Shown: positions 13,808-19,271 of the stretch, in pieces | Layout of the letters: each line of letters opens with the position of its first letter | How positions within the stretch are numbered: position 1 is the stretch's first letter | DNA from: Promethearchaeota archaeon | GTDB taxonomy: Archaea; Asgardarchaeota; Lokiarchaeia; Sigyniarchaeales; SOKP01 | DNA: 64,000 nucleotides | Direction: 5' to 3' | Assembly: GCA_048937405.1 (NCBI GenBank) | Contig: JBHLNF010000009.1 | Coordinates: forward strand, 139,096-203,095 | The notes under the pieces: generated by a model | What the model was told of the DNA's origin: nothing | The model's database searches: none | What the model saw: the letters and a program-made list of their open reading frames with translations, nothing else | Translations under genes and position numbers: made by a program

Positions 13808-15181
13808 ATGGTATATTTTCAGATTAGTCCTGTAGGATTTGATTGTGGAATAAATAAAGACGAATGTCAAAGATATCCAGATTTCTGTAAAGAGTGTGTA
13901 GAAGAACAGCTTCATAAAATTGGTTTATACCTAGATCAAAATTTAAAGATTACAATGATTGATTCAGAAGAAAAACGTATCAAGGTATTTAAGGATTTAA
14001 TCTGGCAAACCTTTTTAGATGTTCTAAACATTAAACACATTATATTAATGACAAAAGATTCAGGATTACCAATAATAGATTATCCACTTTCAGGTGCTGG
14101 TATAAATATTGAATTATTATTAGGATTTATACAAGCAAATATAACTTTTTCTGAAACAGGGACGACAATTAATGATAATTCCAAAAGTGGAAAAGATAAT
14201 CCCTTTTATGAGTTTCATTATGAGACTTTCAATATTTTACTAAAAAACAGAGAACAAATTAGGATTTGTTTAGTTTTAGATCATAAGGCTTCTGATAGTC
14301 TGAAAAATCTTGTTATTGAGTTTTTAAATGAATATGAGTCAAGATATTTTGATAAATTAGAGAGATTTATTAATACCAAGAAGCTTGAATTCGAAGATAC
14401 AATTGATTTCATAATTGACACTTTCAATATTAAATTGGTCTTTCCTATGACTCTAACCCATACATTTTTACCAAATACATTAGAAGCAATCAAAAAAAAT
14501 CCTATACAAAAAGCTATAATCGATTTTGCTAAACAATTATTAGCTTCAAAGCACTTCTTTTTTATTATCAATTTAATTGATGAAGTTCAAAAAATTGTAC
14601 ATATTGAGGCTAAAAATATACTTTACGAGATATATCAACTTTTAGAACAAAATAGTATATATCCAACGACAATTGAGATAGCTGAAGATAAGGTTCTGAA
14701 ATTTCATGAATCAAATGCAACACGATTAGCCAGTAATGAGCTTATTTCTCCAATTATTGCTAATGATGATGCTATTAATGAACTGAAAAAAAAAGCTCAA
14801 TCAATGAGTGAGGAAGAAGTTAGAAAGGCAATATCTGCTTATATTAAAAAAGCTCAAACTGCTGAAAAATCTTTAATATACAAGGAAGCTCTACGAGAAT
14901 ATGAGAGAGCTTTATATTTAGCAACTGGTTTTGATTTTAAGGAAGAAATTGGGCGAATATCATTTTCCGTCTTAGAACTTGATAAAAAGATTAAAGAAAT
15001 GGATCTTGAATATGCCTTGATTGCTGCTGAAAAAGCTGAAAAAAAGAAAGACTATATAAATGCTATTAATTACTATAAACAAGGATTAAAGATTCTTAGA
15101 GATGTCCAAGATTTCAATGGAAATGAAAATCGAATTAAAAAATTAGAAAAAAAGATTTTAAACCTCCAAAAGCATTTGTGA
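13808..15181 (+). CDS. soluble longin/roadblock-like + wHTH + TPR-like protein with Cys-rich N-terminus
   Basis: NIKHIILMTKDSGLP...ELLLGFIQA...KASD aligns by eye to the cytoplasmic tail of 15261-19271; C-terminal helical repeats. Confidence 0.6.
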   Translation: MVYFQISPVGFDCGINKDECQRYPDFCKECVEEQLHKIGLYLDQNLKITMIDSEEKRIKVFKDLIWQTFLDVLNIKHIILMTKDSGLPIIDYPLSGAGINIELLLGFIQANITFSETGTTINDNSKSGKDNPFYEFHYETFNILLKNREQIRICLVLDHKASDSLKNLVIEFLNEYESRYFDKLERFINTKKLEFEDTIDFIIDTFNIKLVFPMTLTHTFLPNTLEAIKKNPIQKAIIDFAKQLLASKHFFFIINLIDEVQKIVHIEAKNILYEIYQLLEQNSIYPTTIEIAEDKVLKFHESNATRLASNELISPIIANDDAINELKKKAQSMSEEEVRKAISAYIKKAQTAEKSLIYKEALREYERALYLATGFDFKEEIGRISFSVLELDKKIKEMDLEYALIAAEKAEKKKDYINAINYYKQGLKILRDVQDFNGNENRIKKLEKKILNLQKHL

Positions 15182-15260
15182 TGTGAAATTACTTAATATA
15201 ACTTATTAAAACTTTCTTGCTGGTTTATAGGATAATTATTTTCTCCGGATAGACGTGAGT

Positions 15261-18200: not shown

Positions 18201-19271
18201 TCCTCCGATAGTTGAATTAAAAGTTTTAACAGCCACCGAGCTAATTGTTATATTATAAATTTTCAATTCTTCGGTGATTGTGTCATTTTTCGAGATTGTG
18301 AATATAACATCACTAGTTTGAGTTCGACTTCTTTCAACATCAATAAAGGCTACACCCTTACCAGAAGTAATATTTTGATAGGAATAATTCATATTAAATT
18401 CAACATCTTTAGCTATGATTAAGTTCGGTATGTTAGATTCAGTCCATACATTAAATTCGATATCATCAAAATATATTTTTTGATCTTTACTTGGCGGAGT
18501 AGCACCAATATCACTTTCTACATTAAGACCTACCCTTATTGTCACATTTTCAGGCAATTGTTGATCATAATTAGAAAGATCATAAGTAACTTTCATTTCA
18601 GTCCAAAAACCTGGTGCTAAATTATATAGAATTTCAGATTTGTTTATCTCATTTTCTCCTATCATAATTGAAATAAACGTACTTATATCATCGGAAGGGT
18701 TGAATAATTGGGATTCCATATAATAATACATGGAAAGACTTGCTAAGGTATTTGTGACAGAATTTTCTGAAATAGTTAAATTTTCTTCAAAATAACTAAT
18801 ATCTCCTTTAGAAAAACTTTGACCTTTTTTAATTGTGATTCCTACACATTGTTCCTCATCAATTGTTTGCCAAGGTTCTTCAACAAAATTAGAATTGTTT
18901 GTGTAATATTCCCATGGGTTTTTACTTGAAGGGAAAGTACCATTGATGACCCTCTGCTTATAATGTGATACTCCATCATAATTTATTGTTACATTTTTAG
19001 AAATCCAGTCTTCCAATAAGGTGAAACTAATATTTTCTGGTAAAGACGTAGGGAAAATTGTATTAGAGATTGTGGCATGTTGAGAAATTAATAATGGTTT
19101 AGAATTAGGTCCGTTTGAAGAGAGTTTGGGATTGTCAAAATCATTCAAATTGGTAAATAAATTTTCATTTGAATCTGGATTGAAATTAAAAATATAAATA
19201 AAAATAGAAATACACAACAAACACGATAACACAATTCCAACTTTTCTTGCTTTTTTATAAATAATAATCAA
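15261..19271 (-). CDS. large surface protein: beta-rich Ig-like ectodomain, TM helix, cytoplasmic longin-like/wHTH domain
   Basis: N-terminal signal/TM, many NxS/T sequons, TM 'YLTWILFAGIFVLVGILSIIGI', then 'ESGLYLY...ELLSGFIHAI'. Confidence 0.75.
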   Translation of the reverse strand: MIIIYKKARKVGIVLSCLLCISIFIYIFNFNPDSNENLFTNLNDFDNPKLSSNGPNSKPLLISQHATISNTIFPTSLPENISFTLLEDWISKNVTINYDGVSHYKQRVINGTFPSSKNPWEYYTNNSNFVEEPWQTIDEEQCVGITIKKGQSFSKGDISYFEENLTISENSVTNTLASLSMYYYMESQLFNPSDDISTFISIMIGENEINKSEILYNLAPGFWTEMKVTYDLSNYDQQLPENVTIRVGLNVESDIGATPPSKDQKIYFDDIEFNVWTESNIPNLIIAKDVEFNMNYSYQNITSGKGVAFIDVERSRTQTSDVIFTISKNDTITEELKIYNITISSVAVKTFNSTIGGLDGSFYEIDNQINWKTDCSFSIPYGYLNNWVEIKKPSDWDITSILDGYDVEKNDSCIGIGIGSETLKIPVGVLASGLWEIRAVSRNYITQGGINVWNETHYIQQSNITLGDIFQINMTLNDTIPYENTYVNCTIKFPNGTIYWSTNKELTSYEVLFGDFTVGKNMTIGSYEVNLLWTNNQSYIDRDKVGYSNFNFIVWHHTNLVAVDSYIERISGDPLLIKVNFTDYDCNTYIDYATVTYNGTLHGGISGTMAYLGSGIYAAEVDTSSLAIGSYFFSFNASKIYFENQSVNNLIVLVIIEQPLALEVPSTVINANSNDYAICNVNVTGALTHTLIPGKTNISTDWHKPYEILNDTIEGTYILNFSTYDVPTQGTLETFTIQVFANKTNYGSTSAYISLTVHPIPTIVNVNKSFIDVHSTENFSLEVNYMVESSSEIITEAILNITWSSFYDVELTPSGFIVECSTEGLSLDVYTLLIQVDHPGYETAFKNVNVNILPKSTSLEIFLNQIEKTSDRSISIVWNESLNITVRYIDFMTKSYIDGATVLVNDSNTSESLYHNIPQYSRIFNPGELSIGIHHFIVTAEKENYFKFSSDVTITVQQIEINIKTISFNNSLEIFAGKSTDLIIKLTEYNTRNIIENANVSYYDLQYNLNEFQYTGNGTYEAKISIPENTKEGTYTLTLNIFIEGDIYKTTKTSFIIIVSKEPGPNYLTWILFAGIFVLVGILSIIGIRHYIILPKKREFQSKLLERTQKYKDLMNIEAILVAQRESGLYLYLKSYYALEKYRKELLSGFIHAITTISKEIVRKDVIIKEDTKLRTAKNIENLIELDFNQFQFLIGDYKELRAIFILKDKASERFVSQLENLLLATDLKFSEDLANWTGNIAKFEKIMPSIIEEYFDLPYKELYQLNSPQHIAKVKEEAELSKMQNRLLNVIYSISKGKQKFYLPDVVELVDEKNKDLVIDALESILEKKMIVPST

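Follow-up and report, generated by a model that had tools for sequence, protein, structure and literature searches.

A predicted longin-like cassette shared by a soluble protein and the cytoplasmic tail of a giant surface protein encoded by neighbouring genes of a Lokiarchaeial genome

Two neighbouring genes were investigated in a 64,000-nucleotide stretch of DNA, here called the window, from a Promethearchaeota archaeon of the Lokiarchaeia (GenBank assembly GCA_048937405.1, contig JBHLNF010000009.1, positions 139,096 to 203,095). The open reading frame (ORF) at 13808..15181 on the plus strand encodes P0001, a protein of 457 amino acids (aa) in which a four-cysteine (Cys4) motif is followed by a predicted longin/winged-helix-like cassette and a helical end. 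The ORF at 15261..19271 on the minus strand encodes P0002, a putative single-pass surface protein of 1336 aa whose start is placed 41 codons further downstream in the database version. The two genes are convergent, their stop codons are separated by 79 nucleotides, and the window is AT-rich, with a G+C content of about 25-39% per 2-kb segment. A first-pass annotation of the window had described both ORFs as a convergent pair, as was found here, and had proposed that they share a longin-like module and form a receptor-adaptor pair signalling to a small GTPase such as that encoded at 7812..8342.

P0002 showed the layout of a surface protein. Its N-terminal hydrophobic segment, residues 8-32 (19176..19250, minus strand; Kyte-Doolittle window mean up to 2.43), is presumably a signal peptide or an anchor, and homologues of P0002 start with a similar hydrophobic N-terminus. 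The segment is followed by a putative ectodomain rich in N, S, T and sequons (residues 33-1064; 16080..19175, minus strand) and by a transmembrane helix predicted from hydrophobicity and sequence (residues 1065-1095; 15987..16079, minus strand), behind which the residues KKRE are found. Between the two hydrophobic segments 40 N-X-S/T sequons were counted, as compared to 19.1 +/- 3.7 in shuffled sequences, and the tail contained a single one. Since the sequons are concentrated between the hydrophobic segments, the shared module should lie on the cytoplasmic side, in agreement with the earlier description of the tail. P0002 can be regarded as a single-pass surface protein whose tail, about 240 residues long, is cytoplasmic, and it is probably glycosylated. 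In the ectodomain, only a weak match to MG2 was obtained with Pfam; weak matches to MG2, MG4 or Big_1, all of them beta-sandwich families, were also seen in a few of 30 relatives scanned. Conservation of the ectodomain was below that of the tail (70% versus 82% in the related locus L001 and 36% versus 49% in L016). The cassette of P0002 starts about ten residues after the single transmembrane helix.

No hydrophobic segment was found in P0001. A search for homologues yielded 412 sequences; the best 120, which were listed, were 59-94% identical to P0001, all but two were 451-461 aa long and every label was Asgard. The four cysteines C13, C20, C27 and C30 (13844..13897, plus strand) were invariant in 30 of 30 aligned orthologues and showed a weak match to Zn_ribbon_NOB1 (E 0.015), indicating that they probably form a small zinc-binding motif. 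The C-terminal residues 407-454 (15026..15169, plus strand) resembled MIT domains and tetratricopeptide repeats (TPR). The Pfam family MIT (PF04212) scored 24.6 bits on the whole protein and 27.5 bits (E 3.3e-6) on the C-terminal piece, the cut-off being 30; among the 120 homologues listed, 17 carry a precomputed match to it. Consensus-TPR chains matched residues 404-435, a weak match was obtained with the Sulfolobus Vps4-type MIT entry 2v6y (E 0.53), and the helices at residues 378-456 had a predicted local distance difference test score (pLDDT) of about 80 in a model of the whole protein with an overall pLDDT of 55. The soluble protein with a TPR-like end of the first-pass annotation was thus recovered, as a helical TPR/MIT-like part with a sub-threshold MIT score. 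Hidden Markov models (HMMs) of the N-terminus and of the C-terminus of P0001 matched just P0001 and its paralogue in this genome.

The cassette copy of P0001 comprises residues 67-290 (14006..14677, plus strand) and was detected by three methods. BLASTP aligned residues 67-288 of P0001 with residues 1109-1336 of P0002 (23% identity over 251 columns, E 0.003 in a single comparison), and all four motif pairs that had previously been aligned by eye between the tail and the middle of P0001 fell inside this one alignment. An HMM built from 21 P0002-type tails matched P0001 with an E of 1.3e-10 among the 4,568 ORFs of the same genome. With hhalign, the tail alignment (A2) and an alignment of 30 P0001 sequences (A1) were matched with a probability of 97.1% and an E of 6.3e-11 over 212 columns. 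The tail HMM also recognised P0001-type genes at 77 of 80 related loci (E 7e-8 to 2e-20), no match being listed at L049, L056 and L064. A third alignment (A3) contained 55 diverse rows from the window, its genome and the related loci, 16-83% identical to the tail of the window; its HMM gave an E of 1.2e-79 on residues 63-290 of P0001, a sequence that A3 includes. These comparisons show that the P0002 tail (residues 1100-1336) and residues 67-290 of P0001 are homologous, and that the two proteins are distant paralogues in one cassette of about 230 residues only. The conserved signature of the cassette consisted of D..NI, K.SG and L.SGFIQA, plus an arginine at the beta4-beta5 turn in 50 of the 55 sequences.

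An AlphaFold model of the P0002 tail obtained from A3 had a pLDDT of 84.4 and a predicted template modelling score of 0.79. Residues 1100-1261 (15489..15974, minus strand) were predicted to form an N-terminal helix and a longin domain with the helices (H) and strands (E) H2-16, E18-25, E31-36, H45-64, E83-89, E92-99, E102-108, H114-136 and H143-156 in model numbering, and a disordered loop at 64-79 between the helix and the three strands. This order of elements is that outlined for longin domains by Levine et al. 2013 (PMC3747258). VIA-align placed the model closest to Sec22b (1ifq_B; Z 12.4, root-mean-square deviation (rmsd) 2.9 A, 126 of 128 residues aligned, for a predicted and not a solved structure), followed by VAMP7 (Z about 11), the longin domain of the Lokiarchaeal Roadblock-Longin protein 8yqg (Z 10.6-10.7) and TRAPP sedlin and synbindin, AP sigma and mu, Mon1-Ccz1 and Fuzzy-Inturned (Z 9-11). 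Roadblock chains scored 7.7-8.6, against 10-12 for longins, and all 50 listed rows in each VIA-align list were chains of the longin/roadblock superfamily. Foldseek gave AP-1 sigma3 as the best match (E 1.2e-4). The whole-P0001 model, which was made on the shallow alignment A1, was poor and showed the same order of secondary-structure elements as the tail model. The model and its structural matches support the longin-like module that had been suspected from the sequence.

The remaining part of the tail, residues 1262-1336 (15264..15488, minus strand), was predicted to form a C-terminal helical sub-domain with the elements E164-167, H170-179, H184-199, H205-211, H217-229 and E233-235 and a pLDDT above 90. 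It looks winged-helix-like by the order of its secondary-structure elements, on which the term is based because the fold-search rows leave this sub-domain out. When the 55 diverse cassette members were compared with Pfam, curated longin profiles included, none matched any family significantly; the best score belonged to an unrelated DUF (E 0.0075), and one member matched Intu_longin_1 at an E of 0.02. Sequence searches of NCBIfam and PDB with the cassette gave no significant match either. On the predicted model, the cassette has a longin-like fold for which there is no existing Pfam or NCBIfam model.

In fold and order of elements the predicted cassette resembled eukaryotic longins (Sec22b, VAMP7, Ykt6, the N-termini of AP sigma and mu, TRAPP sedlin and synbindin, Mon1-Ccz1 and Fuzzy-Inturned) over about 120-130 residues, with Z 9-12.4 and an rmsd of 2.9-4 A. 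It differed from them in having no detectable membership of a sequence family, and in its extra N-terminal helix, as in roadblock domains, and its winged-helix-like end. Furthermore, longins of SNAREs are located N-terminally on tail-anchored proteins, whereas the cassette is located C-terminally to the membrane helix of the surface protein. The predicted layout of the cassette recalls NPRL2 and NPRL3 of GATOR1, which carry a longin domain followed by elements of the winged helix-turn-helix type and are outlined as pairing paralogues by Levine et al. 2013 (PMC3747258); the cassette has one winged-helix-like unit, as judged from secondary structure. GATOR1 chain C gave the longest Foldseek alignments (245-307 columns), but these were poor (TM-score 0.28-0.32, rmsd 13-15 A), and no Pfam NPR2 or NPR3 match was found among the 55 members. 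Longins with the activity of a GTPase-activating protein (GAP) are described as having a GP motif before strand 2, beside the catalytic arginine (Traffic 2025, PMC12290439). This motif was absent from the cassette, in which the loop before strand 2 reads S-G-L/I, with the G in 54 of 55 members, and S-G-L-P in P0001. The conserved cassette arginine sits at the beta4-beta5 turn. With regard to roadblock/LC7 platforms, such as MglB-MglA and the Ragulator LAMTOR-Rag system, a membrane-tethered platform would follow the logic of Ragulator, and Asgard roadblock structures matched at Z 8.0-8.6. An N-terminal helix such as H2-16 is typical of roadblock domains, but the cassette has two C-terminal helices and higher Z-scores to longins, and the anchor of Ragulator is a lipidated partner, whereas that of P0002 is a transmembrane helix of the same chain.

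The cassette family proved to be large. With the A3 profile, 3,868 cluster representatives were detected at an E of up to 1e-3; of these, 1,108 reached 1e-10 or below and 470 reached 1e-30 or below. The cassette was mostly located at the very C-terminus of proteins of 700-2000 aa; some proteins had about 200 residues behind it and some were of the 457-aa type. All named matches and Protein Atlas clusters were archaeal, with Asgard labels; the clusters were all 'hypothetical', and one of them (score 0.82) carried TrmB on 52% of its members. In 152 of 301 sampled genomes of the phylum at least one match was obtained (E<=1e-5), the highest number in a single genome being nine. The genome of the window contained six full-length copies on five contigs. 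The soluble ones were P0001 and its 464-aa paralogue on contig C20, and the surface ones were P0002, a paralogue of 1180 aa (C26) and two others of 1122 aa (C17) and 1563 aa (C18).

Two of these copies showed additional features. The gene of the soluble paralogue (C20:15976-17370, minus strand) is located 3.5 kb from an ORF of 438 aa (C20:20884-22200, plus strand), residues 232-350 of which matched the longin part of the cassette HMM with an E of 1.4e-15. The 1563-aa surface protein (C18:32308-36999, plus strand, locus L083) has its cassette at residues 1145-1363 and, behind it, about 200 helical residues with motifs of the K-K-x-D-Y type, an extension that was also present in many database relatives and gave only a weak Pfam GOLD match. 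The extension could not be tied to the C-terminus of P0001, since the HMM of the latter matched just P0001 and its paralogue.

The soluble type was distributed much more narrowly than the cassette. The full P0001 architecture was detected in 56 of the 301 genomes, all from the window's own GTDB family; by family, it was present in 55 of 68 genomes of this family and in 0 of 232 elsewhere. P0001-type genes usually occurred in two paralogous copies per genome. Maximum-likelihood analysis supported the soluble clade (19 rows) at 100/100 and the P0002-type clade (14 rows) at 100/99; both were on long stems and were joined only at 82/72. The two cassettes are thus old, separate clades, and the adjacency of the two genes does not derive from a recent tandem duplication.

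The neighbourhood of the two genes was compared in 51 loci with P0001 orthologues (L001-L051). A P0002-type tail was located convergently downstream of the P0001 orthologue in four of them (L001, L002, L016 and L020). In 15 loci the POR gamma gene directly followed the P0001 orthologue, and in the remaining 32, of which two had less than 125 nucleotides of downstream sequence, neither of the two was found. Seen from the other side, a P0001-type cassette was present in 0 of 29 P0002-type loci of other genomes (1.5 kb on each side; at least 1.3 kb of downstream sequence in 28 of them), while the locus of the window itself showed both cassettes in this survey. Four genomes of a sister genus, G019, G030, G117 and G159 (89-100% complete), contained P0002-type tails with an E of about 1e-91 to 1e-93 and no P0001-type gene at E<=1e-40. 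The two-gene module postulated in the first-pass annotation is not supported by these results, as adjacency was largely not conserved. The two genes do not form a conserved pair; their arrangement is restricted to a lineage, a few close relatives having a surface-protein gene between P0001 and the POR operon. In three loci (L006, L032 and L045) another cassette-bearing gene was found 3-9 kb from the P0001 orthologue. L020 contained a second P0002-type tail (L020:20565-21281, minus strand) 9 kb downstream of the first, indicating that surface-protein genes of this clade can cluster.

A small GTPase of the Rab/Ras family (Pfam Ras, E 3.4e-44) is encoded at 7812..8342 on the plus strand and is considered here as context only. 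It is 5.5 kb away from P0001 and separated from it by six unrelated genes, including those for a 2-oxoacid acyltransferase-like protein, a BpsA-AdoMetDC fusion, a nitroreductase, an ArsR-type regulator and ARPP-1. Among 108 GTPase-like ORFs of the genome, 95 were shorter than 450 aa, which corresponds to about one per 47 kb. Given this distance, the intervening genes and the number of small GTPase-like ORFs, the former assignment of this GTPase to the module was not upheld. In 11 of the 51 loci an orthologue of the GTPase (55-84% identical) lies no more than 10 kb from the P0001 orthologue, and in L023 and L040 the distance is just 0.9 kb. Because these genomes are close kin, the proximity is a lead and not evidence. 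A conserved ORF of 130 aa was observed in eight related loci, on the opposite strand just downstream of the GTPase orthologue (L023:9192-9584 and L046:9100-9492, both on the minus strand, and L004, L011, L018, L040, L041 and L043), and partially in L032. It had no Pfam match, was the sole gene between the GTPase and P0001 orthologues in L023 and L040, and was not among the ORFs of 80 aa or more of the genome of the window.

Dimers of longin and roadblock domains are outlined as platforms for GTPases by Levine et al. 2013 (PMC3747258) and Tran et al. 2024 (PMC10933270). By analogy, we consider it reasonably probable that the cassette belongs to a family which is carried by surface giants and by soluble proteins and acts as a longin/roadblock-type platform, and in which the adjacency seen in the window does not represent a conserved pair. 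Like solved longin and roadblock domains, the cassette would dimerise through a beta-sheet edge, and the dimer, either a homodimer or a mixed dimer with paralogues, would serve as a platform for a small GTPase or an adaptor. The short tether in P0002 might hold the platform flat on the inner face of the membrane, by which the state or the clustering of the ectodomain would be coupled to a cytoplasmic switch. P0001 might be the free soluble version, bringing its own MIT/TPR-like interaction surface. Four observations weigh against this interpretation. The top structural matches are the longin domains of SNAREs, whose partners are coat adaptors and which do not act as GTPase platforms. No VIA-align row reaches the C-terminal sub-domain, i.e. 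model residues 163-237, the last 75 residues. Unlike in an operon of the MglB-MglA type, no small GTPase gene adjoins any of the six full-length cassette genes, the nearest GTPase-like ORF being 5.5-16.7 kb off and never adjacent, at an average density of about one per 47 kb. Finally, the chance of immediate adjacency for two of six cassette genes was roughly estimated at below 1%, so that the two genes may be linked in some way by history or function.

It is almost, though not quite, an even bet that P0001 and P0002 belong to one large domain family but have no functional connection, and that their adjacency is an accident of insertion. The 15 loci with POR gamma directly behind P0001 fit the insertion of a surface gene in a sub-lineage, and the scattering of six full-length copies over five contigs and the age of the two clades point in the same direction. 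It is improbable, however, that two of six copies should be adjacent by chance among about 4,000 genes, and the cassette genes at 3-9 kb from P0001 in L006, L032 and L045 hint at loose clustering.

The cassette might also be a sorting or adaptor handle, like the longins of Sec22, VAMP7 and Ykt6, for machinery of the coat or ESCRT type instead of a platform for GTPases. P0001 would then bridge the tails to ESCRT-III via its MIT-like end, leading to turnover or vesicle loading of the surface glycoproteins, or to their placing on protrusions. This is suggested by the SNARE longins among the top matches, which bind Sec23/24, AP-3 delta or Hrb, by the resemblance of the P0001 C-terminus to MIT, and by the outline in Makarova et al. 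2024 of Asgard multidomain proteins joining longin with ESCRT-related, TPR, Ig-like and HTH/PCI domains. However, the MIT match is under the Pfam cut-off and that to the solved Vps4-type MIT is weak, and no ESCRT gene turned up in a Pfam scan of 12 ORFs at 7.8-24.7 kb, in which no dedicated ESCRT search was made. The fold cannot separate the SNARE-type from the GTPase-platform reading, because the Z-scores of the two differ by only 1-3 units. We regard a role as a sorting handle as unlikely.

Still less likely is a specific longin heterodimer of the P0002 tail and P0001, similar to Mon1-Ccz1 or NPRL2-NPRL3, that acts as a guanine nucleotide exchange factor or GAP for the GTPase at 7812..8342. 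Such a pair would agree with the presence of the same longin cassette in both proteins, with the immediate neighbourhood of the genes here and in L001, L002 and L016/L020, with the GTPase orthologues near P0001 in 11 loci, and with the arginine kept at the beta4-beta5 turn; eukaryotic longin regulators are, moreover, often outlined as heterodimers of paralogues (Levine et al. 2013, PMC3747258; Traffic 2025, PMC12290439). The loci concerned are close kin, though, and their shared order may be simple descent, whereas adjacency was found in 4 of 51 loci from the P0001 side and in none of 29 from the P0002 side. The genes are not co-transcribed, because they are convergent; six unrelated genes stand between P0001 and the GTPase, and the cassette lacks the GP motif seen in longins of the GAP type. 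An obligate heterodimer is further argued against by the phyletic data, i.e. by the confinement of the P0001 type to one GTDB family, as opposed to the far wider tail cassette, and by the four sister-genus genomes with P0002-type tails only. It seems very doubtful that several surface giants in this Lokiarchaeial family share P0001 and its paralogue as soluble partners, with cassettes paired edge-to-edge as in NPRL2-NPRL3 and with the MIT/TPR-like end and the Cys4 motif connecting the receptor, once engaged, with ESCRT-III or the syntenic Rab-like GTPase; if true, this would be a prokaryotic receptor-to-trafficking relay made from eukaryote-type parts.

Asgard genomes encode dozens of small GTPases and longin/roadblock proteins. 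A cassette joining surface giants directly to a longin platform would provide a concrete protein set for testing outside-in coupling, for which the highly conserved soluble twin with its MIT-like end is likewise a candidate. According to Rodrigues-Oliveira et al. 2022, cultured Lokiarchaeia have no S-layer but numerous complex surface proteins. Families of 'NPRL2-like longin' asCOGs, some of them fused to other domains, are mentioned for Loki and Thor genomes by Liu et al. 2020 and Rodrigues-Oliveira et al. 2022; a membrane-anchored form was not named in the available parts of these reports, and the word 'transmembrane' is absent from the main text of Liu et al. 2020. No account was found in the literature of a transmembrane-anchored longin/winged-helix cassette, or of a protein in which a Cys4 motif and a longin domain are combined with an MIT-like end, in a search that did not extend to the asCOG supplementary tables, which may hold the cassette family. 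The present analysis adds a family of soluble twins with a narrow distribution, and evidence against the neighbouring pair as a conserved module. In this case a domain shared by neighbouring genes was no evidence of a dedicated pair.

Several other genes were observed in the window. An ArsR-type helix-turn-helix gene, followed directly by a gene with an ARPP-1 domain (PF20208, E 3.9e-48), is located upstream of P0001 at 12140-13602 on the plus strand; among the 51 related loci, 13 have ARPP-1 and five have the ArsR gene in the 1.5 kb upstream of the P0001 orthologue. The ORF at 9547-10968 on the plus strand combines BpsA_C, the C-terminal domain of branched-chain polyamine synthase (E 8.8e-45), with an S-adenosylmethionine decarboxylase domain (E 3.6e-23). 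Just past the POR genes and a gene for a GDT1-type cation/proton antiporter, a protein of 540 aa with SBBP beta-propeller repeats (E 2.1e-21) is encoded at 23066-24688 on the plus strand. A 129-aa ORF at 32162-32551 on the minus strand (C27_171257_171646) matched the longin start of the cassette HMM (positions 18-66, E 2.7e-5) and is one among about twenty short or partial longin-like ORFs of this genome.

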